DNA from: Pseudomonadota bacterium
Lineage (GTDB): Bacteria; Bdellovibrionota_G; JALEGL01; DATDPG01
NCBI GenBank assembly: GCA_043809315.1
Contig: JAZDDX010000016.1
Span: 32,001-96,000 of the forward strand
Length of the DNA stretch: 64,000 bases
Direction of reading: 5' to 3'
The notes under the pieces were generated by a model. The model was given only the letters and a program-made list of their open reading frames with translations, was not told the DNA's origin and ran no database searches. The position numbers and the translations under genes were made by a program. Numbering within the stretch: position 1 is the stretch's first letter; each line of letters begins with the position of its first letter. This document shows positions 4,888 to 59,019 of this stretch, one piece after another.

Positions 4888-5954
4888 TTCGCCCCTTCCC
4901 CTTTGAGCGCTTCGGTCTGGTAGTAGGTCCGGAGTGCCATGACGATCTCGGCGAGATCCCCCTCCATCACCTGATCCAAGCGGTGGAGCGTGAGCCCGAT
5001 CCGGTGGTCGGTGATCCGATTCTGCGGGAAGTTGTAGGTCCGGATCCGTTGGCTCCGGTCCCCCGATCCGACCATCAGTTTCCGGGCGGAGGAGATCTCC
5101 GCGTCCTGTTTCGCCTGTTCTGCTTCGAGCAGACGGGCACGAAGAACCCGAAGCGCCTTTGCCTTGTTCTTGTGCTGCGACTTCTCATCCTGGCATATGA
5201 CAATGAGACCGGTCGGGATGTGAGTGATCCGGACCGCCGAGTCGGTGGTGTTGACGCTCTGGCCCCCCGGGCCACCGGCGCGCATGACGTCGATGCGGAG
5301 ATCCTTCTCTTCGATTTTGATCTCGACCTCTTCCGCTTCCGGAAGAACCGCGACAGTAACCGCGGAGGTGTGGATCCGGCCACTTCCTTCCGTGGCTGGG
5401 ACCCGCTGGACCCGGTGAACCCCTCCCTCGTATTTCAAATGGCTGTACGCCCCGTGCGCTTCCACGAAAACGACCGCATCTTTGATTCCGCCAAGGCCGG
5501 TTTCGCTCTTCGTCATCACCTCGACGCGCCAGCTGTTCCGTTCGGCGTACCGAAGGTAGAGACGAAGCAGTTCCGCTGCAAAGAGCGCCGCCTCCTCCCC
5601 GCCGGTTCCAGCACGGATTTCGAGGAAGACGCTCTTTTCGTCATTCGGATCCTTCGGAAGCAAGAGAAGCTGGAGAGCCTTCTCGAGTTTCTCTTTTTGT
5701 GCGTCGAGCGAGGTGAGCTCCTGCCGGGCGAGATCCGCCATCTCCGGATCGGCCCCATTGCTCAGCTCGTGCGCCTGCTCAACTTCTGCCGAAACCCTCC
5801 GGTACTCGCGATAGGTCTCGACGACCTGACGGAGGTCGGAGAACTCTTTGGAGAGTTTCTGGAATTCGTCCTGACGGGCGATGACGTTCGGATCCGAGAG
5901 TCGAACGGAGAGTTCTTCGTACCGCAGCTCGACGGCTTCCAAGCGGGAAAACAA
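4884..5954 (-). CDS. prfA: peptide chain release factor 1
   Basis: [21 protein letters not shown] (PxT motif), [19 protein letters not shown] start. Confidence 0.98.
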
Positions 5955-5963
5955 TGGATGCTT

Positions 5964-6179
5964 CTAGTTGGAAGTCTTCGGCGAGGCGCCGTACTTCTTC
6001 CGGAAACGGTCGATCCGTCCGGCGGTGTCCATCAACTTCTGCGTGCCTGTGAACAACGGGTGGCATTTCGAGCAGATTTCCACCCGAATGTTCTTCTTGG
6101 TCGAGCGGGTGTTGATCACGCTTCCGCAGGCGCAGGTGATCGTCGTGGCGACATATTCGGGGTGAATTTTCTCTCGCAT
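5964..6179 (-). CDS. rpmE: 50S ribosomal protein L31 (zinc-binding type)
   Basis: [28 protein letters not shown]. Confidence 0.98.
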
Positions 6180-6308
6180 ACGTGGTTTCTCCCTAACCCT
6201 TCAAAAAGGCTGCGCTTTGTAGCATACGTCCCCGGGCGGAGCAACTGGAGAAAGAGACGAAAAGTTGGATTCCTTCCGGGCCAAAAATGGTAAAAGAAAC
6301 GACCGGTT

Positions 6309-8045
6309 GTGAGAGAAAAGAACCTCGCCACTCTTTTCCAGAATCGCGTCTACCGCTTCGGGGGACGCCCGGCACTCATCTACAAACGGGGCGGGGCTTG
6401 GACGGAGCTGACGTTCGAACAGGTAGCCATCGCCGTGGAGGAAACGGGGCGCGGACTCTTGGCGCTCGGCGTGGGGAGTGGTGAACGAGTTGGCATTTTC
6501 GCTGATAACCGCCCGGAATGGCTCTATCTCGATCTCGCGATTCAATCGATCGGAGCGGTGTCGGTCCCGATCTATGCGGGGAGCTCGGAGGGGCAGTCGG
6601 AGTTCATCCTTCGCCATTCGGGAGCCAAGATCGTGGCGGTCGGAGGTGAGGAGCCGGAGAAACATCTTCTCTCGATTCATGCGAGAACGCCGTTTCGTAA
6701 GATCATCTTTCTCGACGAGACGGTCCACGAGGATGATTCGTCACTCGCGTCGTTCGCTTCCCTTCGTGAGCAAGGGCGAAGTGGAAAGGCGACCGCTTTC
6801 TACGATCGCCTCGAGAAAGTGGGCGCCGACGACCTCTCCACCCTTCTCTACACCTCGGGAAACGAGGGGGATCCGAAAGGGGTTGTACTGACCCACGGGA
6901 ATATCCTCGCGAACGCGCTTGGCGCTGCCTCGGTCTTCCCGATCGGGGAGGAGGACCGCTCACTCTCGTTCCTGCCGCTCAGTCATGCCTTCGCGCGAAC
7001 CGCCGGGGTCTTCGCCCCTTGGTCTCTCGGCTGCGCGATCGCACTCACGGAAAGCGTTTCGAAGCTGCCGGAAGACCTTCTTGAGGTGAAGCCGACGGTT
7101 CTCTTGACCGTCCCGGGGGTCCTGGAAAGATTCTATCGAAAGGTAAGGGAGGAGATCGCACACCGCAACCGCCTCGTCCGCTGGCTCTTCAAGATCGCCA
7201 TCCAACGTCGCGCGCGAGGGTTGGCCGGGGCTTTGTTCGAATCGCTCTTCTACCGCGCGATCCGGGAACGTTTCGGCGGGAAACTCCGACACCTCGTCTC
7301 CGGCGGAGCCGCGCTGAACCCGAGAGTGGCCGACTTCTTCGACACCATCGGGATCGGGATCCTCGAAGGGTACGGCTTGACCGAGGTTTCGCCGATCGTC
7401 TCCGTGAACCTTCCCGGCAACCGGCGAAAAGGAACCGTCGGACGTCCGATTCCGTCGGTCGAGATCCGGATCGCGGAGGACCGAGAGGTTCTCGTCAAGG
7501 GTCCGGGCGTGATGAAGGAGTACTTCGGCGATCCGGAAGCGACCCGCGCGATGATCGGATCTGACGGTTACCTGCGCACCGGCGACATCGGGACTCTCGA
7601 CAGTCATGGGTTTCTGACCTTGATCGACCGCAAAAAGGAGATCCTCGTGACGTCGAGAGGGAAAAACATCCCTCCGCAGGTCGTGGAGAACCAGCTCCGG
7701 AGTCATTCGTTGATCGAGCAGGCCTGCGCGATCGGAGACGGACGGGAATATCTGGCGGCGCTGATCGTCCCAAACTTCGTCCTACTCGCCGAATTGGCGA
7801 AGCGGCACCGGATCAGAACCGGTGACCGAGAGGCTCTCGTCCGCGATCCGACGATCCGCGGTTGGTTCTCCTCGATCGTCGAGCGGGTGAACAGCGGGCT
7901 GGCGCGCGACGAAACGGTCCAACGGTTCGAGCTTCTGACCGATCCGTTTACGATCGAAAACGGCGAGCTGACGCTCACTTTGAAACTTCGGCGAAACGTG
8001 ATCTTGAAGCGCTACGCGGCGATCGTCGGCCGAATCTATCTTTAA
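6309..8045 (+). CDS. long-chain fatty-acid--CoA ligase (AMP-binding)
   Basis: YTSGNEGDPKG, SFLPLSH, EGYGLTE, LRTGDIG, ELTLTLKLRR. Confidence 0.88.
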   Translation: MREKNLATLFQNRVYRFGGRPALIYKRGGAWTELTFEQVAIAVEETGRGLLALGVGSGERVGIFADNRPEWLYLDLAIQSIGAVSVPIYAGSSEGQSEFILRHSGAKIVAVGGEEPEKHLLSIHARTPFRKIIFLDETVHEDDSSLASFASLREQGRSGKATAFYDRLEKVGADDLSTLLYTSGNEGDPKGVVLTHGNILANALGAASVFPIGEEDRSLSFLPLSHAFARTAGVFAPWSLGCAIALTESVSKLPEDLLEVKPTVLLTVPGVLERFYRKVREEIAHRNRLVRWLFKIAIQRRARGLAGALFESLFYRAIRERFGGKLRHLVSGGAALNPRVADFFDTIGIGILEGYGLTEVSPIVSVNLPGNRRKGTVGRPIPSVEIRIAEDREVLVKGPGVMKEYFGDPEATRAMIGSDGYLRTGDIGTLDSHGFLTLIDRKKEILVTSRGKNIPPQVVENQLRSHSLIEQACAIGDGREYLAALIVPNFVLLAELAKRHRIRTGDREALVRDPTIRGWFSSIVERVNSGLARDETVQRFELLTDPFTIENGELTLTLKLRRNVILKRYAAIVGRIYL

Positions 8046-8124
8046 TTATAATATTTTCAGTATCTTGGAATAATTTACACGGGGGTACTCGCGTGGTATA
8101 GCCTCGCTCAATCGAAGGCGGAAG

Positions 8125-9993
8125 ATGACCGTACAACCCGATACTCTTTCGACCGTCGACGGAATCGATCCGGACCACCTGTTTCATCCGACGGTCGATC
8201 AACGCCCCGCGGAGATCGCTGAGGTCTCGGGCGCGGGGATCTGGCTCCTCGACCGGGAGATGAAGGTCCTCTTCATGAACCGGGTCATGGAGGAGATCTA
8301 CGGGTCGATCACCGGAAAGCCGGCGCCGTACTGTTATCAGCTCTTTCGCGGTCGAACCGAAAAATGTGCCGACTGTCTTCCCGAGCGCGCGTTCGCCACG
8401 GGGCAGATCATCCTCGGGTACCTCTCGCGTCTCACCCCGGACGGCGTTCATCGCTACTATCAGGTGATCGAGGCTCCGCTCCTGGACGAGAACAACCGGA
8501 TCACACGGGTTCTCGAGATCCTTCTCGACATCACCGAAAAAGGGCGTCTCGAACAGACCCTGAGAACCTCTGAAGCGGAATATCGGGCGCTTTTCGAACA
8601 TGCCGGCACGGCAGTGGCGGTAGTCGGGGAGGATGGCGTGATCCTCCGCGTCAACCAGCGCTTCGAGGAACTCTCCGGGTATTCGAGGAGTGAGATCGAA
8701 GGACACAGCCGATACGACCAATTCGTCCATCCGAAGGACCGACAGCGTCTTCTGACTCCGACGACAAAACCGAACGGAACGCCGGAACCGTACCAGTTTT
8801 CGTTTCTGAACCGCTGGGGGAACGAGCGATACGTTCACGCAACGATCACTCGCCTCCCCTCTCTCCATCACCAGGTCTTTTCGATGATCGATTTGACCGG
8901 CATGCGGAAACTCGAGCGCGAGATCTGGAGCAAAGACCAGTTCCTCGCGAACATCCTCCACCACTCCGTCGATGCGATCGCGGCACTGGATCCGCAAGAG
9001 TTGATCCGCTCTTGGAACCGGGGGGCGGAGCTGATGTTCGGGTACAGCTCGGACGAAATCGTGGGAAAACCTTTTTCCACGCTACTCCCCCCCGAATTCA
9101 TCCAATCGGACGAATTCGAACGGATCTCGATCCGGTTCCGGAAAGACGGCTTTGCCCGGAACGCCCTTCTCCCAGCGGTCGCAAAAGACGGACGGACGCT
9201 CACGATCAACATGACCCGCACGGCGATCACGGATTCCGAAGGGGGGGATCTCGGAAGCTCCGTCATGATCCGGGACGAGACGGAACAGCGGAAGCTCGAG
9301 CAACGGATGATCCAACAGGAGAAGACGCTGGCGCTCGGAGAGCTGGCCGCGGGACTGGCGCACGAGATCAAGAACCCTCTCAATTCGCTCGTGATCCATA
9401 CCGAAGTATTACGGGGTCATCTATCCGACCTGGCCGGCCCCCACCGGGCTGCGTTCGATCGTTACGAGGAGATCGTTCTGAAGGAGGTCCAGCGGCTCGA
9501 CAAGGTCGTTGAACGGGTTCTCAATTTTTCCAAGCCGATGGAGGGGGTTTTCGAGAGGATCGATCTGCGCGAAATCGTCACTCACGTGACTCAGCTCCTC
9601 TCGGCTCAAGCGAGCCGCGAGCATGTCGATCTCCGTACCAAGGTACCGGACAACCTGCCGCCGATCGAAGGGGTCCGCGACCATCTGATCCAGATCTTCA
9701 TCAACCTCCTGCTGAACGCCTTCCAGGCGATGCCGAAAGGGGGGGTGGCGACGATCGATGTCCGGAAGGGACAGAAGCAGAGCGTGATCGTCTCGATCTC
9801 CGACACCGGCGTCGGGATCCCGAAACCGAATTATGCCCGCGTGTTCGATCCGTATTTCTCCACGAAGGAGAAAGGGCGCGGGCTGGGGCTGCCGCTCGTC
9901 AAACGTCTCGTCACAACTCAAGGAGGCACGATCTCGTTCAAGAGTCGCGTGAACCATGGCACGACATTCATCCTCACATTCTCCTTCGCCTGA
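8125..9993 (+). CDS. cytoplasmic multi-PAS sensor histidine kinase
   Basis: Three PAS-like repeats, H-box AHEIKNPL, N-box NLLLNA, DTGVGI, GRGLGL; no obvious TM segments. Confidence 0.93.
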   Translation: MTVQPDTLSTVDGIDPDHLFHPTVDQRPAEIAEVSGAGIWLLDREMKVLFMNRVMEEIYGSITGKPAPYCYQLFRGRTEKCADCLPERAFATGQIILGYLSRLTPDGVHRYYQVIEAPLLDENNRITRVLEILLDITEKGRLEQTLRTSEAEYRALFEHAGTAVAVVGEDGVILRVNQRFEELSGYSRSEIEGHSRYDQFVHPKDRQRLLTPTTKPNGTPEPYQFSFLNRWGNERYVHATITRLPSLHHQVFSMIDLTGMRKLEREIWSKDQFLANILHHSVDAIAALDPQELIRSWNRGAELMFGYSSDEIVGKPFSTLLPPEFIQSDEFERISIRFRKDGFARNALLPAVAKDGRTLTINMTRTAITDSEGGDLGSSVMIRDETEQRKLEQRMIQQEKTLALGELAAGLAHEIKNPLNSLVIHTEVLRGHLSDLAGPHRAAFDRYEEIVLKEVQRLDKVVERVLNFSKPMEGVFERIDLREIVTHVTQLLSAQASREHVDLRTKVPDNLPPIEGVRDHLIQIFINLLLNAFQAMPKGGVATIDVRKGQKQSVIVSISDTGVGIPKPNYARVFDPYFSTKEKGRGLGLPLVKRLVTTQGGTISFKSRVNHGTTFILTFSFA

Positions 9994-10030
9994 GTCGATC
10001 CCGGATCCCCGTCCCCCGTCGAAAGGGGGG

Positions 10031-11386
10031 GTGCCGGAACGGAAACGGATTCTCGTCGTCGACGACGAGGAGTCGGCCCGTTCGGGTCTCCAGGAACTGA
10101 TCGAGAGCTGGGGGTTCGAAACGGAAGCGGCCGAAGACGGCCGGACGGCGCTCGACAAGATCAAGTCGTTCCGCCCGCACCTGATCCTGACCGACCTCGT
10201 CATGCCCCGGATGGACGCGATCGCGCTCTTAAAGAAAGTCGATCTCCGGGAGGTCCAGGTGATCCTCCTGACCGCGCAGGGGAGCATCGACTCCGCCGTC
10301 GAGGCGATCAAGCTCGGAGCGTACGACTACCTCACCAAACCGGTCGACATCGTCCGGCTCAAGCGCCTTCTCGAACACCTGGCCGAGAAGCTCGACACAG
10401 ACGAGGAAGTGAAGCGGTTGCGGTATCAGCTCCGGCAGCTCGGTTCGTTCGGCCGTCTCCACGGGACCTCGCCGGCCATGCAGGAGCTTTTCCGGCAGAT
10501 CGAAGTGGCGGCTCCCAGCAGTGCGTCGGTGTTGATCGCGGGCTCCAGCGGCACCGGCAAGGAACTGGTCGCGCGGACCATCCACGACTTGAGTCCCCGC
10601 CGGAACGCCCCGTTCATCGCGATCAACTGTTCCGCGATCCCGGCGACGCTCCTCGAAAGCGAGTTGTTCGGGCACGAGCGCGGCGCGTTCACGGGAGCGG
10701 TCAAGACCAAGGAGGGGTGTTTCGAGCTTGCGGACGGCGGGACGTTGTTCCTCGACGAGATCGCGACGATGGCGCTCGAGCTGCAAACGAAACTCCTTCG
10801 CGTCCTTGAGAACGGCCGGTTCCGGCGTGTCGGCGGACGGGATGAGCTGCACGCCAATGTCCGCCTGATCGCGGCATCCAACATCCGCTTCGACGACGCG
10901 ATCCGGGACGCGGTCTTCCGGGAGGACCTGTACTATCGGCTCAATGTGTTCCAGCTCTCGCTTCCCACTCTCCGTGAACGGGTCGCCGACATCCCGCTCC
11001 TGGCACAACATTTCGTCGACGAAATGTCCGAGAGGAATCATAAGGAGATCCGCTCGATCCATCCGGACGCGATGAACTGCCTCAAACACTTTGCGTGGCC
11101 GGGGAACGTCCGGGAATTGAAAAACACGATCGAACGGGCGGTGATCGTCGCGCGAGAGAAAACCATCCTGCTGCAGGATCTTCCCGAAGCGATCCGCCAG
11201 CATCCGGCTCAAGGGCCGGTCCTGTCGTTCCCGGTGGGAACCCCGATGGATGAAATCGAAAAGACGGCGATTCTCCGAACGCTCGACTTGACCGGCGGGA
11301 ACAAGACCGAGGCGGCAAAACTGTTAGGGCTCAGTCTCAAAACACTTCACAACAAGGTGAACCAGTACCGGGCGAGACCGGGGTAA
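10031..11386 (+). CDS. sigma-54-dependent response regulator (NtrC-family bEBP)
   Basis: Receiver ILVVDDE/TDLVMP, GSSGTGKE, GAFTGA, WPGNVREL, Fis-type HTH; GTG start after GAAAGGGGGG. Confidence 0.95.
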   Translation: MPERKRILVVDDEESARSGLQELIESWGFETEAAEDGRTALDKIKSFRPHLILTDLVMPRMDAIALLKKVDLREVQVILLTAQGSIDSAVEAIKLGAYDYLTKPVDIVRLKRLLEHLAEKLDTDEEVKRLRYQLRQLGSFGRLHGTSPAMQELFRQIEVAAPSSASVLIAGSSGTGKELVARTIHDLSPRRNAPFIAINCSAIPATLLESELFGHERGAFTGAVKTKEGCFELADGGTLFLDEIATMALELQTKLLRVLENGRFRRVGGRDELHANVRLIAASNIRFDDAIRDAVFREDLYYRLNVFQLSLPTLRERVADIPLLAQHFVDEMSERNHKEIRSIHPDAMNCLKHFAWPGNVRELKNTIERAVIVAREKTILLQDLPEAIRQHPAQGPVLSFPVGTPMDEIEKTAILRTLDLTGGNKTEAAKLLGLSLKTLHNKVNQYRARPG

Positions 11387-11397
11387 AGCACGGGTCG

Positions 11398-11410
11398 CGT
11401 AAATTTTACG
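11398..11410. promoter_or_regulatory. palindromic candidate bEBP enhancer (UAS)
   Basis: Perfect palindrome CGTAAA-T-TTTACG about 190 bp upstream of a sigma-54 promoter; degenerate copy GGTAATTTTTTCG at 11471-11483. Confidence 0.5.
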
Positions 11411-11585
11411 TAAGAACTATTTAAGCTCACGGTTTAAGAGCCCAGGGTGGAGCGTGACGAACCTACGTTTGGTAATTTTTTCGTGAAGTGGTTGCTAGAT
11501 TTGACCCACAGTGCACCTGTCTAAGGTTTTTACAAAAAAGTGCTGCGAATTCGGTTGGATATCGTTGTCGCAGAAAAACGACTCC

Positions 11586-11602
11586 TTGGTATGAGGATTG
11601 CA
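11586..11602 (+). promoter_or_regulatory. sigma-54 (-24/-12) promoter
   Basis: TTGGTATGAGGATTGCA: GG 11588-89, N10, GC 11600-01. Confidence 0.75.
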
Positions 11603-11612
11603 GTTCTCAGTT

Positions 11613-11800
11613 CCGCCTGAGAACTGTGTAGGCTAAGGGAATTCAGTTGAGAGGGGTGGTAGCCACTACCTCATTTCCCCCTACAACAAATGGTACCAAG
11701 TTCTCTCAGCTTCGGTCTGCTGGTTCCAGGCATAGTTAGGCGGCTAAGGGTGTCGTTCTTCCCCTCCTTCGAATGAACCCTTAGCCGTCCTTGTTTTTTC
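11613..11800 (+). ncRNA. candidate sigma-54-dependent small RNA
   Basis: Region between the sigma-54 promoter and an intrinsic terminator with no convincing ORF; stem-loops at 11646-11687 and 11739-11790 with C-rich single-stranded segments. Confidence 0.6.
11739..11799 (+). terminator. intrinsic terminator (+ strand)
   Basis: GGCGGCTAAGGGT...ACCCTTAGCCGTC followed by CTTGTTTTTT; U-tract only in + orientation. Confidence 0.75.
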
Positions 11801-11803
11801 TGC

Positions 11804-14239
11804 TTACCCGACGCGAACTAGATTCAGTTTGTCCTGCCAGACCTGTTCGAGAAACCAGGTCAGGTGCGCATGCCCAGGACGGCGAAGGTCACGATCTTCT
11901 TCGAGAAGCGTGAAAGCCTCCCGGCGAGCCGACTCGAGAAGACTGAGATCCCGGGGGAAAACGGCTACGGCAAAGCTCGGAAAACCAGATTGCTCGACGC
12001 CGAAGAAATCGCCCGGCCCCCGCACCCGGAGGTCTTCTTCCGCCAGAAGGAAGCCATCGTGAACCCGCGCGAAAACCCGCAGGCGGTTACGCGCCGTAAC
12101 CGAAACTCCGCTCGGGACGATCAGGAGACAGCTCGACTTCTCGCTTCCCCGCCCCACCCTGCCGCGCAATTGATGGAGCTGCGAAAGCCCGAACCGCTCG
12201 GGATGTTCGATGACCATCACGGTGGCGTTCGGAACGTCGATCCCGACCTCGATCACCGTCGTCGAGACGAGAACGTCGATCTCCCCGCGCACGAACTTGC
12301 CCATCACCTCTTCCTTCTGGAGACCGGGCATCTGTCCGTGGATCAGCGCGACCCGGAAGTCTCGGAATGGTCCCTCCTTGAGCTCCTCGGCCATGCTGGT
12401 GGCGTCTTTCGCCTGGAGTTGCTCCGACGGCTCGACGAGCGGGTAGACGACGTACGCCTGCTGCCCTTCCGAGACCGCCTTTCGAACCTCGGCATAGACC
12501 CGCTCCCGATCTTTCTCGGAGTAGAGGTTCGTTTCGATCGGCTTCCGCCCGGCCGGAAGTTCGTTCAGGATCGACACGTCGAGGTCGCCGTAGAGGGTGA
12601 GAGCGAGCGTGCGCGGGATTGGCGTGGCCGACATGACGAGAACGTCGGGTGCGAGGGCTTTCGAACGAATCGTCGCTCGCTGGCGGACACCGAACCGGTG
12701 CTGCTCGTCGACGACGACGAACCCGAGTGATTTGAAACGGACGTCTTTTTCGAGAAGCGCGTGCGTGCCGACGAGGATGTCGATCTTCCCCTCTTCGACA
12801 TCGCGCAATACCTCTTTCCGTTCCGACGTGGAGAGACAGCCGAGAAGACAACCGATGCGGATCCCCACCTGTTTTCCCCACGACGTGAGCGTGCGCAGAT
12901 GTTGTTCCGCCAGAATCTCCGTCGGTGCCATGAACCCCGCTTGGTATCCGTGATCGACTGCGACCAGCGCCGCAAGCATGGCAACGATCGTTTTGCCGCT
13001 TCCCACGTCCCCCTGCAGGAGACGATTCATCGGTCGCGCGGCCGCCATGTCGGACCGGATCGACTCCAGGACCTTTTTCTGCGCGTCGGTCAGCCGGAAC
13101 GGGAGCACGTCGATCAGTTTCCCGTACCGCGGGCTCTCCCGGTCAAACGCAATTCCGGGCTGTCCCGATACGATCCGTTTCCGGAGAGCGAGCGAGAGGC
13201 AGTAGAAAAAGAGTTCCTCGAACGCCAACGAACGCTCCAAAATCTCTCGGCGATCCTGCTTCGGTTCGCCAGCCGGCGCGTGGAGCTCGGCGATCGCCTT
13301 CCACGGGGGAAGCAAATCGAGCCGCTCGCAAATCTCCGGGGGAATCACGCACCTACGCTCCCCGGCATACGTCGCGACGGCGTAGTTCAGGACTTTCCGG
13401 AGCGTCTTCTGGTAGAGGCCGCCGACCTCCCGATAGACCGGGACGATCCGGCCGAACGAAACAGAGTCGAGTTGCCCGGTGTGAACCTCGAAATCGGGGT
13501 GATACATCTCGACCTTCGAACGGTAGACCTTGGTCTTGCCGCAAACGATGAGGCGCTGCCCCCGTTTGACCCTCTGCTCCAGGCTCCCGAGGATGAAGTG
13601 AAACCATTTGAGTTTCATGCTCCCGGTCTCGTCTTCGATCGTGACCTCGAAAACCCGCCGCCGGAGCCCCCGATAGAAGGCGACGCCGCTGAATGTGACC
13701 GTCCCGATGACCGTGGCCGCGACACCGTCCTTGAGTTCCCGGATCGGCGTAATCGCCCGGCGGTCTTCGTACCGGAGCGGAAAGAACATCAGAAGGTCCC
13801 CCACGTTCCGGATTCCGACCCGGTCGAACTTCGAGGCGATCGACGGGCCGACCCCTTTGACGAATTGAACGTTCCCGCCGAGACGTTGATACGAAAGCTT
13901 GAGTGCCGAGGTATCGGGGACGGGATGTTCCTGCAGGAGGAAGCTCCGCATGCGCGGCTGTCGGGCCGGCTTCCCGGAGATCAGGGAGCGGGCCTCGGAG
14001 ATCCGGCGTCTCTTCTCCTCGTCGCCGAGATCGTCGTACCCCGAGAACAGTTCCTGCAGGGCCCGGAACATCCGCATCTCCCTCTCTGCAAGATTCGAAG
14101 CAAGTGCCTCCCGGCTGACGTCGAGAACGTGTTGCGAGAGATTCTTGACCGTTTGAATCCGACGGGGGTCCCCTTCATCGACATACTTGAGAGGTCGTTC
14201 GATCGCCTCGAGGTAGTCTCGCGGCCCCTCTTCCGTCAT
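11804..14239 (-). CDS. recG: ATP-dependent DNA helicase RecG
   Basis: FFPLRYEDR, MNRLLQGDVGSGKT, DEQHRFGVRQR, SATPIPRTL, QLHQLRGRVGRG, RGPGDFFG. Confidence 0.97.
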   Translation of the reverse strand: MTEEGPRDYLEAIERPLKYVDEGDPRRIQTVKNLSQHVLDVSREALASNLAEREMRMFRALQELFSGYDDLGDEEKRRRISEARSLISGKPARQPRMRSFLLQEHPVPDTSALKLSYQRLGGNVQFVKGVGPSIASKFDRVGIRNVGDLLMFFPLRYEDRRAITPIRELKDGVAATVIGTVTFSGVAFYRGLRRRVFEVTIEDETGSMKLKWFHFILGSLEQRVKRGQRLIVCGKTKVYRSKVEMYHPDFEVHTGQLDSVSFGRIVPVYREVGGLYQKTLRKVLNYAVATYAGERRCVIPPEICERLDLLPPWKAIAELHAPAGEPKQDRREILERSLAFEELFFYCLSLALRKRIVSGQPGIAFDRESPRYGKLIDVLPFRLTDAQKKVLESIRSDMAAARPMNRLLQGDVGSGKTIVAMLAALVAVDHGYQAGFMAPTEILAEQHLRTLTSWGKQVGIRIGCLLGCLSTSERKEVLRDVEEGKIDILVGTHALLEKDVRFKSLGFVVVDEQHRFGVRQRATIRSKALAPDVLVMSATPIPRTLALTLYGDLDVSILNELPAGRKPIETNLYSEKDRERVYAEVRKAVSEGQQAYVVYPLVEPSEQLQAKDATSMAEELKEGPFRDFRVALIHGQMPGLQKEEVMGKFVRGEIDVLVSTTVIEVGIDVPNATVMVIEHPERFGLSQLHQLRGRVGRGSEKSSCLLIVPSGVSVTARNRLRVFARVHDGFLLAEEDLRVRGPGDFFGVEQSGFPSFAVAVFPRDLSLLESARREAFTLLEEDRDLRRPGHAHLTWFLEQVWQDKLNLVRVG

Positions 14240-14240
14240 G

Positions 14241-17200
14241 TTACGACCGGTTCCCCCGGAGGGACTGAAGCGTTCGGATCGAGACCGATCCCCCGAGAGC
14301 CGCCGCGATCGCCTTCGCCGCGGCCCATGATCCGGGAAGCGTCGTGAAGTACGGGATGTTCCTCTCGAGAGCACACCGGCGGATCGACCGCGAATCTTTG
14401 ACCGACGGTTTTCCCATCGTCGTGTTCATCACCAGGTCGACCTTGCGATTCAGGATCATGTCGACGACGTGGGGTCGTCCCTCGGCCACCTTATTCACCT
14501 GTTCGACCGGGATCCCACGCTCGAGAAGAAAGCGGGCGGTTCCGCGAGTCGAGACGATCCGGAAACCGTTTTCCCGCATCTGCCGGGCGATCTCGACCGC
14601 TCCCTCTTTGTCTTGATTGTTGACGCTCAAGAACACAACCCCCGAGCGCGGGAGAACGTTACCCGCCGCGTTCTGGGCTTTCCCGAACGCCAGCTCCCAA
14701 CGATCGTCCACCCCCATCACCTCGCCGGTTGATTTCATCTCCGGCCCCAACACCGGATCGACGTTCGAGAACCGGACAAACGGAAAAACCGGGGATTTGA
14801 CGGCGTAGTGTCCCGTCAACCTCCGTCGCTCCAGCTCCTCCGGTTTGAGCGTCCCTCCCAACATGATTCGGACCGCCTCCGCAACGAGCGGAATCCCGAT
14901 CGCTTTCGAAACGAAGGGAACGGTCCGTGAGGCGCGGGGGTTCACCTCCAGCACATAGAGCGTCTCCCCCTGCAGGGCGTACTGGATGTTCAGGAACCCT
15001 TTCACACGGAGCGCGACCGCGATCCGCTCGGTCTGATCTTGAATCTGTCGCAGGATCTTATCAGAGAGAGAGAAGGGGGGAAGGACACAGGAGGAGTCGC
15101 CCGAGTGAACCCCCGCCTGTTCCACATGCTGCATGATTCCCGCGACGAACGTTGCATGCCCATCGCTCAATCCATCGACGTCGATTTCGATCGAATTCTC
15201 GATGTACCGGTCGATCAGGACCGGATGCTCCGAGGAGGCCCGGACCGCTTGGGTGAGATAATCACCGAGTTCTTTCTCGTCGTAGACCACCTCCATCGAG
15301 CGCCCACCCAGGACATACGAGGGGCGAACCATGAGGGGATATCCGATCTTCGCGGCGACCGCTTGCGCCTCTTCCACCGATCGTGCCACTCCGGCCTCGG
15401 GCTGACGGATCCGGAGCTCTTCGAGGAGCCCCCGGAACCTCTCGCGATCCTCCGCCATATCGATCGCGTCGGGAGAGGTCCCTAGAATCGGAACCCCTGA
15501 TTCCGAGAGAAACTTCGCCAGTTTGAGCGGAGTCTGCCCGCCGAACTGGAGGATCACCCCTTTCGGTTTTTCGCGATCGAGGATTCCGATCACATCCTCG
15601 GCGGTCAACGGCTCGAAATAAAGGCGGTCGGAGGTATCGAAGTCGGTCGAGACGGTTTCCGGGTTGCAATTCACCATCAGGCTCTCGAGGTTCGATTCGC
15701 GGAGCGCCAGGCTGGCGTGCACGCAACAGTAATCGAACTCGATCCCCTGCCCGATCCGGTTCGGCCCGCTCCCCAAGATCACCACCTTGTCACGCGGTGT
15801 GGGGGGGGCCTCGTCCTCGGCGGCAAACGTGGAGTAGAGGTAGTTCGTGCGCGACTCGAACTCCGCCGCACAGGTGTCGACGGCGTGATAGACCGGACGA
15901 ACGCTGATCGCTTCCCGTCGGCTTCGGACCTCTTTTTCGTTCGACCCGAGGAGTTCGCCGAGCCTGCGATCGGAGAAGCCTAAGCCTTTGAGACGCATCC
16001 ACTCGTCCCGATCCAGCGTGTCGATCGGTACCGACTTCAAGCTCTCCTCTTCCCGGACGATTTCCTGGATCTGCGACAAGAACCACGGATCGATCCCCGT
16101 TGCCTCCGCCGCCGCCTCGACCGAAACGTTCCTCCGGAGAAGCTCGGCCAGAACCATGATCCGCTCCGGGACCGCCGTGCACATCATCCCGAGCAGTTCC
16201 TCGTCCGAGAGATTCTCCTTCCCCAGAGGCTTGAGCGATCCCCAGAAACCGTATTGCCCGATCTCGAGGGAACGGATCGCTTTCTGGAGCGATTCGCAGA
16301 ACGTCCCTCCGATCGCCATCACCTCCCCGACCGATTTCATCTGCGGGGTGAGCGACCGGTCCGACCCTTTGAACTTACCGAAATCGAACCGGGGGATCTT
16401 CGTCACGACGTAATCGATCGTCGGCTCGAACGAGGCTTTGGTGACCCGGGTGATATCGTTCGGGAGTTCATCGAGCGTGTAGCCGACCGCCAACTTCGCG
16501 GCCAACTTCGCGATCGGGTAGCCGGTCGCCTTCGAAGCGAGCGCCGAGCTGCGCGAGACGCGCGGGTTCATCTCGATCACGTAGACCTGGCCCGTCCCCG
16601 GATGAACCGCGAACTGGATGTTCGACCCGCCGGAATCGACGCCGATCTCCCGCATGATCGCGATCGAGTAGTCCCGGAGCCGCTGGTACTCGACGTCGGT
16701 CAGCGTCTGCGCCGGAGCGACGGTGATGCTGTCCCCCGTGTGAATCCCCACGGGGTCGAGGTTCTCGATCGAGCAGATCACGACGACGTTGTCGTTGCGG
16801 TCGCGCATCATCTCGAGCTCGAACTCTTTCCATCCGAGGATCGACTCCTCGACCAGCACCTCCCCGATCGGGCTCGACTCGAGCCCCCACCGGATCAGCT
16901 TTTCGTACTCCTCCGCGTTGTAGGCGACGGAAGCCCCCGCTCCGCCCAGCGTGTAGGAGGGGCGGATGATCGCCGGAAGGCGCACCGTTTCGAGCGCCTC
17001 GGCCGCTTCGTTGCGGTTCCGAATGTAAGCGCTGCGCGGGACCGGGACCCCGATCCGATCCATCGCCTCCTTGAACCGCTCACGGTTTTCCGCCTTTTCG
17101 ATCGACTCGACTCGCGCCCCGATCAGTTCGACGCGGCAGGCCTCCAGCACCCCCTGCCGATGGAGCGCCATCGCGAGGTTGAGCGCCGTCTGTCCTCCCA

Positions 17201-26044: not shown

Positions 26045-26120
<76 letters not shown>

Positions 26121-56311: not shown

Positions 56312-56333
56312 ACCCTCGAAACCTGAAAAATTA

Positions 56334-56726
56334 ATGCGAGCAGGTCTGTAAGCCGAGTCCTGTCCCCGGCTTGCGCCGGGTGACGATCATTCCTCTAGGC
56401 GGCCGGTTACCCGGCCGCTCCAGCAGCCTACCCGGGGACGTAACGAGAAAGGGCTTGCTCTAGTCCCCCTATTTGGCCTTGCTCCGGAAGGGGTTTACCG
56501 CACGGCCGCTCTCACGGCTCTCGTGGGGGAGCTCTTACCTCCCCGTTTCACCCTTGCCTGATCCCTATGAATCTCCGGAGAAATTCAGAGGGCCATCGGC
56601 GGTCTGCTCTCTGTTGCACTTTCCGACGCTCGCGCGCCCTGGACGTTATCCAGCTTCCTGCCCTTTGGGAGCTCGGACTTTCCTCCCCGGGGTTTGCACC
56701 CCGCGGCGACCGCCCGACCTGCTCGC
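56334..56726 (-). ncRNA. rnpB: RNase P RNA (type A)
   Basis: GAGGAAAGTCCGAGC, AGTGCAACAGAGAGCAGACCGCC, GGGTGAAACGG..GGTAAGAGC, GGTAAACCCC..GGAGCAAG, GACAGGACTCGGCTTAC; complementary ends (P1). Confidence 0.97.
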
Positions 56727-58946: not shown

Positions 58947-59019
58947 TGGGCCCTCCTGGATTCGAACCAGGGACCTGCCGGTTATGAGCCGGTGGCTCTT
59001 ACCGCTGAGCTAAGGGCCC
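58947..59019 (-). tRNA. tRNA with CAT anticodon, probably tRNA-Ile2
   Basis: GGGCCCTTAGCTCAG...CTCATAA...GGTTCGAATCC...GGGCCCA; lacks fMet features; sits after rpoD like ileX; CCA not encoded. Confidence 0.9.

Follow-up and report, generated by a model that had tools for sequence, protein, structure and literature searches.

Gene organization of the locus

The window analysed here, a stretch of 64,000 nucleotides, contains three consecutive genes on the + strand that face a convergent recG. The first encodes an AMP-dependent, FadD-like ligase (6309–8045; Pfam AMP-binding, 5.6e-77; NCBIfam FadD11-like, below the cut-off), the second a sensor histidine kinase with two to three PAS domains (8125–9993; Pfam PAS, HisKA and HATPase_c) and the third an NtrC-family bEBP response regulator (9956–11386; Pfam Sigma54_activat, 1.5e-68, Response_reg and HTH_8). 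The best NCBIfam matches of kinase and activator are AtoS and AtoC/NtrC, respectively, both below the cut-off, and no membrane segment is obvious in the translation of the kinase. The opposing recG (11804–14374, - strand) is identified by the Pfam domains RecG_wedge, DEAD and Helicase_C; its relatives align only from about residue 46–55 in tblastn searches, and its real start probably lies downstream of the listed GTG. The Pfam domains thus agree with an initial annotation of this DNA, which had named a PAS kinase, a bEBP and a convergent recG as the neighbors of a candidate sRNA.

The gap of 417 bp between the activator gene and recG accommodates this sRNA (11613–11800, + strand); its 5' and 3' ends are predictions based on promoter and terminator, respectively. 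As judged from sequence comparison, the region is a stand-alone, non-coding regulatory RNA of ~188 nt that represents a previously undescribed family outside Rfam; there is little doubt about a conserved gene for a structured RNA at this place. It is preceded by a sigma-54-type -24/-12 promoter (11587–11601, + strand; TGGTATGAGGATTGC), which comprises the GG-N10-GC element noticed initially (TTGGTATGAGGATTGCA; GG at 11588–89, GC at 11600–01). Further upstream, the palindrome described at 11398–11410 is present as well (CGTAAATTTTACG; two 6-nt arms around a single central base) and encloses a predicted distal activator site of the form GTA-N5-TAC (11399–11409; GTAAATTTTAC), at a distance of 188 bp from the promoter TGG. 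A probable proximal site with one mismatch to this pattern lies 115 bp upstream of the TGG (11472–11482; GTAATTTTTTC).

Structure of the RNA

The predicted transcript (11613–11800) folds with -73.5 kcal/mol, corresponding to a z-score of -4.7, and none of 200 shuffled sequences reached an equal value; a second computation for the same RNA yielded a z-score of -4.27, and all 11 full-length RNAs tested had values between -4.3 and -8.0. In the predicted fold, a long imperfect 5' rod is followed by a terminator hairpin. The rod ends in an apical hairpin (11657–11698, + strand), in which the stems UGGUA.CCA and UGGUACCA enclose a 25-nt loop, and the terminator hairpin (11739–11789, + strand) consists of 13 bp, a bulged G and 6 bp. 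The latter is GC-rich and has a U tract immediately 3' of it on the transcribed strand (CUUGUUUUUU, 11790–11799, + strand), which is the configuration of an intrinsic terminator and corresponds to the terminator with a + strand U tract that had been described from the letters alone. A simple terminator and promoter scan of the region returned nothing relevant and did not list the hairpin at 11739–11789, because its loop of 12 nt exceeds the limit of 8 of the tool.

The Infernal/Rfam scan that the initial annotation had recommended revealed no match to a known family, neither for the whole window, where only RNase P and two tRNAs exceeded the gathering threshold, nor for positions 11300–11900, where E-values up to 10 gave two chance-level matches only (mir-1298 and PK-BYV). 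When sequencing runs were checked for the sRNA sequence, no RNA sequencing run was listed, and a single DNA run contained 0.22 of the words. The organism is known solely from metagenome assemblies.

Conserved loops and covarying stems

A BLAST search with the 417-bp gap against 40 relatives revealed short stretches that are 100% identical in members of further families within the phylum, and these stretches are the two loop motifs of the RNA. Motif 1, in the apical loop of the rod (11668–11684, + strand; ACCUCAUUUCCCCCUAC, or ACCUCAUUUCCCCCUA over 11668–11683), has 15 invariant columns in 18 sequences; in all members, the apical hairpin of the rod displays A(C/U)CUCAUUUCCCCCUA. The C-rich tract that the initial annotation had cited at 11675–82 is part of it, with a C run at 11677–11681; it had been ranked there as a second tract, a ranking that does not hold, given that no element of the family is more strongly conserved than motif 1. 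Motif 2, the 12-nt loop of the terminator hairpin (11759–11770, + strand; UUCCCCUCCUUC), includes the CCUCCU to which attention had been drawn, and its core CCYCCTTC is invariant or nearly invariant in 13 sequences, with no variation in CCxCCTTC. Besides the rod, members of the families f1, f3 and f5 have a terminator hairpin with (U)UCCCCUCCUUC or close variants in its loop. The 3' ends of individual members vary: in genome G011, a T-run is located directly 3' of the rod, and in G015 termination is by a second hairpin with a T-run instead.

Both loops are predicted to be exposed. In the RNA of the host genome, the unpaired probabilities are 0.94 for motif 1 and 1.0 for motif 2; across 11 RNAs, they range from 0.96 to 1.0 for the core of motif 2 and from 0.40 to 1.0 for that of motif 1 (at least 0.68 in ten of them), compared with means of 0.34–0.43 over all positions. 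The family thus combines conserved C-rich regions with predicted single-strandedness of these regions, as is characteristic of anti-Shine-Dalgarno sRNAs.

The stems that present the loops change in a coordinated manner. The outer 13 pairs of the terminator stem are 97.4% paired, versus 29–54% with slid partners, and in the six sequences that align in register seven of these 13 pairs are compensatory, both sides having changed; other lineages surround the same motif 2 loop with wholly different stem sequences. For hairpin 1, nine of 11 pairs are changed on both sides and 95.6% of the cells are paired in a model-fitted alignment, which leans towards structure and one row of which is a spurious antisense sequence; none of 500 shuffles scored as high. 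RNAalifold found 0 pairs in a plain MAFFT alignment of hairpin 1, because its stems are out of register there; a repeat with MAFFT gave a misaligned result as well. In isolated windows of 73 nt, the C run sits in an apical loop in 12 of 15 minimum-energy folds and not in the other three, with z-scores from -3.7 to +0.8. Both stems covary, as judged from MAFFT or model-fitted alignments. Related genomes show the promoter, the palindrome, the two loops and their stems again; the initial annotation had regarded a lack of conservation of the promoter and the stems as evidence against its proposal, and both recur. The sequence features described here go beyond chance.

Distribution across genomes

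With at most one mismatch, the motif 1 pattern CCTCATTTCCCCCTA had matches in 14 of the 17 phylum genomes examined; a reversed control pattern gave three matches. A covariance model of hairpin 1 (R2, built in two rounds) likewise recovered the RNA from 14 of these 17 and from none of 134 genomes outside the phylum; the host genome has a single copy according to this model. Four of the genomes that hold the RNA are classed as Bdellovibrionota, Bdellovibrionales or Oligoflexia. In the accessible text of the literature on Bdellovibrio sRNAs and sigma-54, including the B. bacteriovorus transcriptome (PMC3627812), the sRNA is not described.

A scan of metagenomes returned 12 stretches, four of which are true members (L052 and its duplicate L058, L056 and L061), adding three distinct members on metagenome contigs; the remaining stretches were rejected as low-complexity or coding look-alikes. 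Motif 1 matches on contig 24 of G000 and contig 5 of G011 lie outside the locus and look like chance, and ten further motif 1 stretches from unrelated taxa, which come without the surrounding features, were likewise taken as chance.

Among the 17 phylum genomes, the R2 search did not find the sRNA in G006, G010 and G012, which group together as a clade of an RpoN tree (support 100/99). In the first two, recG lies opposite a membrane-protein gene; the locus of G012 is cut off by a contig end within recG.

Two locus architectures and their promoters

Synteny, assessed by tblastn of the window proteins against 13 extended loci, revealed two arrangements around the RNA. The order kinase, activator, sRNA is found in seven genomes (G000–G004, family f1; G015, f5; G016, f6), whereas the other seven (G005, f2; G008, G013 and G014, f3; G007, G009 and G011, f4) have the order ligase, sRNA, recG, carB and lack both kinase and activator at this locus. 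The FadD-like ligase is the upstream neighbor that is kept among relatives, and it directly adjoins the sRNA in the lineages that have no two-component pair. The metagenome contigs fit this split: an activator lies upstream in L061, the ligase in L052.

The promoter elements follow the same division. The -24/-12 pattern TGGYAY-N5-NTGC is present in all eight copies from the seven genomes with the pair, 76–117 nt upstream of motif 1, versus none of the seven copies without it. GTA-N5-TAC occurs upstream of all eight copies with the pair (one to three sites each; in six of the eight, a perfect site lies 106–118 bp upstream of the promoter), as opposed to one of seven without. The activator sites mostly read YGTA-(T-rich)-TACR, and the lone match in the group without the pair is not T-rich. 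Several lineages have tandem copies of the RNA (a second copy in G004, a second copy with variant loops in G001, and two copies in L056), and every extra copy is equipped with its own palindrome and promoter; the additional -24/-12 elements are those of the second copies in G001 and L056 and that of L061. In the lineages without the pair, a strict sigma-70 consensus scan gave a plausible match only in G005, at -87, and AT-rich, -35/-10-like hexamers are discernible by eye.

Within the host genome, 97 sigma-54-like sites and 59 GTA-N5-TAC sites were counted. Of the 97, only the sRNA promoter has a GTA-N5-TAC 40–300 nt upstream, and the site concerned, the distal one, is one of the 59; by this crude palindrome and promoter criterion, the activator would have one target in its own genome. 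The gene rpoN is present in the host genome and in 16 of the 17 phylum genomes, the exception being 58% complete; thus, the promoter difference between the two groups does not stem from a loss of sigma-54. The -24/-12 element lies at the correct distance, and the activator gene tracks the predicted promoter. It is very likely, on the strength of these sequence comparisons, that the sRNA is under sigma-54/activator control in its own genome. Sigma-54 control by the adjacent kinase-activator pair, as put forward initially, is strongly supported by the way in which promoter and palindrome track the pair across genomes, and the palindrome presumably acts as a conserved upstream activator site, given the GTA-N5-TAC sites upstream of all eight sigma-54-type copies.

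In the RpoN tree, the pair-bearing genomes form one clade (support 86/83), so that one gain or one loss of the kinase-activator pair may suffice to account for the distribution; the tree, which is based on a single gene and midpoint-rooted, does not settle which of the two occurred. The GTDB ranks place f5 and f6 outside the order of f1–f4, which favors loss of the pair. The two clades amount to a natural experiment on one RNA gene at one locus: in one of them, the gene is apparently under a dedicated two-component/sigma-54 switch, and in the other the pair and the -24/-12 element are missing, as are the activator sites (one palindrome match among seven copies). The coupling of regulator and promoter is unusually clear-cut in this comparison.

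Proposed mode of action and alternative explanations

These elements could operate together in the following manner: The PAS kinase, presumably a cytoplasmic sensor, would control the NtrC-type regulator, which would bind the GTA-N5-TAC sites located around -188 and -115 and activate the promoter at 11587–11601. This sigma-54 promoter would drive transcription of the sRNA in its own genome, and the sRNA appears to be the dedicated output of the regulator. The two exposed C-rich loops may then pair with the G-rich Shine-Dalgarno regions of several mRNAs, and the pairing would block translation initiation without a need for Hfq, as in other sRNAs with C-rich loops. A sigma-54/PAS-switched sRNA family with loops that pair with ribosome-binding sites is the best explanation of the whole, and we regard it as reasonably probable; for the pairing at ribosome-binding sites, which is proposed by analogy, our assessment leans slightly towards acceptance. 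The loops include CCUCC and CCCCC, which are complementary to ribosome-binding sites of the GGAGG type. Hfq and CsrA were each detected in none of the 17 phylum genomes, in searches that gave matches in control genomes. The RNA would give this uncultured, Bdellovibrio-like phylum, for which no sign of either protein was found, a first regulator at the post-transcriptional level.

Against 2064 crudely called start regions, the duplex energies of the two loops averaged -13.9 and -16.4, compared with -14.4 and -15.2 for the reversed loops; no target is named, because the scan did not separate the loops from these controls. A search of the host genome for a long complement to motif 1 found none: the only match with 0 mismatches is the antisense strand of the RNA itself, and the other 20 matches have two mismatches each. 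The start region of the kinase ranks in the top 3.5% for duplexes with loop 2; this complementarity is not clearly conserved in relatives, and feedback on the kinase mRNA is not claimed.

Among the readings in which the region is not an independent regulatory RNA gene, that of a 3'-UTR or terminator module of the activator or ligase gene, or of a terminator for recG, could draw on the invariable position of the element directly 3' of ligase or activator, on the hairpin at its end and on the dearth of convincing sigma-70 promoters in the lineages without the pair (G005 with its match at -87 excepted). However, every copy in the pair-bearing lineages is preceded by a full -24/-12 promoter with activator sites, and the promoter is repeated with each tandem copy; in G008, a separate hairpin and T-run, recognized by eye, intervene between the ligase stop and the RNA; a terminator does not require an invariant 15-nt loop 80 nt upstream; and the hairpin cannot serve recG as an intrinsic terminator, because its U tract is on the + strand. 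We consider this reading very improbable. The chance that a small protein is the actual product, from the 28-codon ORF that the initial annotation had pointed out at 11690–11776 or from another short ORF, appears negligible. The 28-codon ORF is indeed present, an ATG follows motif 1 in nine of 15 copies, and one reading frame of motif 1 encodes TSFPPT in several of them; but the other six copies have no such ATG, the nine are open for anything from 2 to 35 codons, the longest sense ORFs differ in frame and start, no Shine-Dalgarno sequence had been seen for the 28-codon ORF in the initial annotation, and the conservation resides in loops and covarying stems rather than in codons. The small-protein reading was rejected, since the ORF after motif 1 is not conserved over the 15 copies, a judgement based on sequence comparison. 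The stand-alone, non-coding RNA of the initial annotation is strongly backed by the comparison: its structure and loops recur, and the ORF does not.

More weight attaches to readings that accept the RNA and assign its loops a different partner. Fifteen invariant loop bases exceed the 6–8 nt that a pairing seed needs, which would allow for a partner such as a protein or the ribosome. The RNA could then be a decoy, whose C-rich loops titrate an RNA-binding protein rather than pair with mRNAs or, in a variant of the same idea, mimic the 3' end of 16S rRNA and bind a ribosome-associated factor. Precedents exist in CsrB/RsmZ, which titrate CsrA, and in CrcZ, which titrates Hfq/Crc; two similar loops per RNA and tandem copies in three lineages would fit titration. 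Further points for a decoy are the excess of invariant loop positions (15 in 18 sequences), the failure to find an extended complementary target in the host genome and the loop CACCUCCUU of G014, which corresponds to the sequence at the 3' end of 16S rRNA. Yet the known titrated regulators, CsrA and Hfq, were not detected in the 17 genomes, we know of no bacterial global regulator that recognizes C-rich loops, and decoy RNAs usually have many repeated sites instead of two, so that we consider either form of decoy rather unlikely. Further-reaching, and in our estimation distinctly unlikely, is the idea of an ancient, phylum-wide master regulator, the invariant 15–17-nt loop of which is read by one conserved partner, be it the translation machinery or an undescribed C-loop-binding protein; in the former version, which shares this low likelihood, the RNA would mimic the 16S anti-Shine-Dalgarno tail and act as a global competitor for start sites. 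If this were true, the RNA would fill the place that is held elsewhere by Hfq or CsrA networks, and one clade would have put a global brake under a PAS-kinase/sigma-54 switch, another under a different promoter, a natural rewiring of one RNA output.

Relationship to known sRNA systems

With pairing at ribosome-binding sites as the preferred reading, the sRNA is a new family of a known class, which depends on a two-component activator and sigma-54 and has loops of the anti-Shine-Dalgarno type. In the systems Qrr/LuxO, GlmY/GlrR (QseF) and CrcZ/CbrB, an NtrC-type activator drives one or few sRNA genes; crcZ is located directly downstream of cbrB, and the Qrr genes occur in multiple copies. The present system resembles them in its two-component NtrC-type activator and -24/-12 promoter. 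It differs in that its sRNA has no Rfam match at E-values up to 10, in that those sRNAs use Hfq or titrate proteins, whereas Hfq and CsrA were not detected here, and in its C-rich loops, those of the Qrr/GlmY/CrcZ group being CA-rich or of the Hfq type. With regard to the loops, counterparts are RsaE/RoxS of Firmicutes and RepG of Helicobacter pylori, for which pairing of exposed C-rich or C/U-rich loops with G-rich ribosome-binding regions, independently of Hfq, has been proposed or shown. Exposed C-rich loops are common to both sides and an Hfq-independent mode would fit, but there is no Rfam match and the phylum is unrelated; to our knowledge, RsaE/RoxS and RepG are not sigma-54-dependent.

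The initial annotation had likened the architecture to that of Pxr from Myxococcus xanthus. As described in the respective reports, pxrK and pxrR (Nla19) are followed there by an sRNA gene for which a sigma-54 promoter and an enhancer site are predicted (PMC5684412); some species have tandem paralogues, each with a sigma-54 promoter, in a host without Hfq, and the RNA, which folds into three stem-loops (SL1 and SL2 being conserved, and SL3 containing a conserved 8-bp stem), is reported only from Cystobacterineae (PMC5568312). The gene downstream of pxr encodes a GNAT acetyltransferase (PMC11928866), and Pxr is reported to contact mRNAs near the Shine-Dalgarno sequence (bioRxiv 10.1101/2025.09.11.675593), an analogy for the mode of action proposed here. 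The comparison, which was made on the basis of published descriptions, provides no evidence for homology, only for a shared layout: no similarity to Pxr was seen in Rfam at E-values up to 10, although Rfam may hold no Pxr model. The likeness stands for the layout; no sequence or Rfam match was found, and the downstream gene differs. The locus appears to be an independent case of the kinase-activator-sigma-54-sRNA design of Pxr, Qrr, GlmY and CrcZ, i.e. one of convergence. The two systems have in common the order of kinase, NtrC-like activator and sRNA, the sigma-54 promoter, tandem copies with sigma-54 promoters of their own and host lineages in which Hfq is not found. They differ in fold (three stem-loops there, a rod and a terminator hairpin here), in the downstream gene (the GNAT acetyltransferase there, recG here), in the taxonomic range (Cystobacterineae of the Myxococcota there, a Bdellovibrio-like phylum here) and in that half of the lineages here keep the RNA without the two-component pair.

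Copy number and position of the sRNA gene

In three f1-like lineages (the genomes G004 and G001 and the metagenome contig L056), the sRNA gene is present in two tandem copies, and a GTA-N5-TAC activator-site palindrome and a -24/-12 sigma-54 promoter are separately present at each of them. The copies are located at positions 7933-8122 and 8314-8515 of locus L042 in G004 and at about 10-195 and 396-590 in L056; the two copies of G001 (L039) lie on the - strand and are spaced about 390 nt. Variant loops, CUUCUUUUCCCCCUAC and UUUCCCUCUUUC, are found in the second G001 copy, and the first L056 copy shows one substitution in motif 1, the C-rich motif within the apical loop of the 5' rod.

The sRNA is absent from three related f3 genomes, G006, G010 and G012 (L064-L066), which form one clade in the single-gene RpoN tree. 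A membrane-protein gene sits 3' of recG in G006 and G010; in G012, the contig end falls within recG. In the lineage of G014 (L049) and the metagenome contig L052, the sRNA-to-recG distance is about 1 kb, and because of this gap an additional gene may lie in between.

Within the window, Rfam matches only the bacterial RNase P class A RNA (56333-56725, -) and two tRNA genes (26045-26117, +; 58947-59019, -).

Neighboring genes and kinase

A 436-aa ORF (4983-6293, +) is conserved 5' of the ligase gene (6309-8045, +) in several relatives (tblastn, 30-37% identity) and has no Pfam or NCBIfam matches. The recG ORF as listed (GTG at 14374) shares 134 nt (14241-14374) with the 3' end of carB; since the alignment of recG from relatives begins only at about residue 46-55 of the listed ORF, the real start is probably located downstream of this GTG.

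A cysteine cluster, C-x11-C-x2-C, lies in the kinase's N-terminal PAS-like region (8125-8600, residues about 30-140), and no obvious membrane segment is present in the protein; this suggests a cytoplasmic redox or metal signal. Conserved 5' of the kinase genes of G001-G004 (L039-L042) is TTTACA, followed by a spacer of about 17-18 nt and TGnTA(T/C)GTT. This element resembles an extended -10 sigma-70 promoter of the kinase-activator operon, which itself thus seems not to be sigma-54-dependent.
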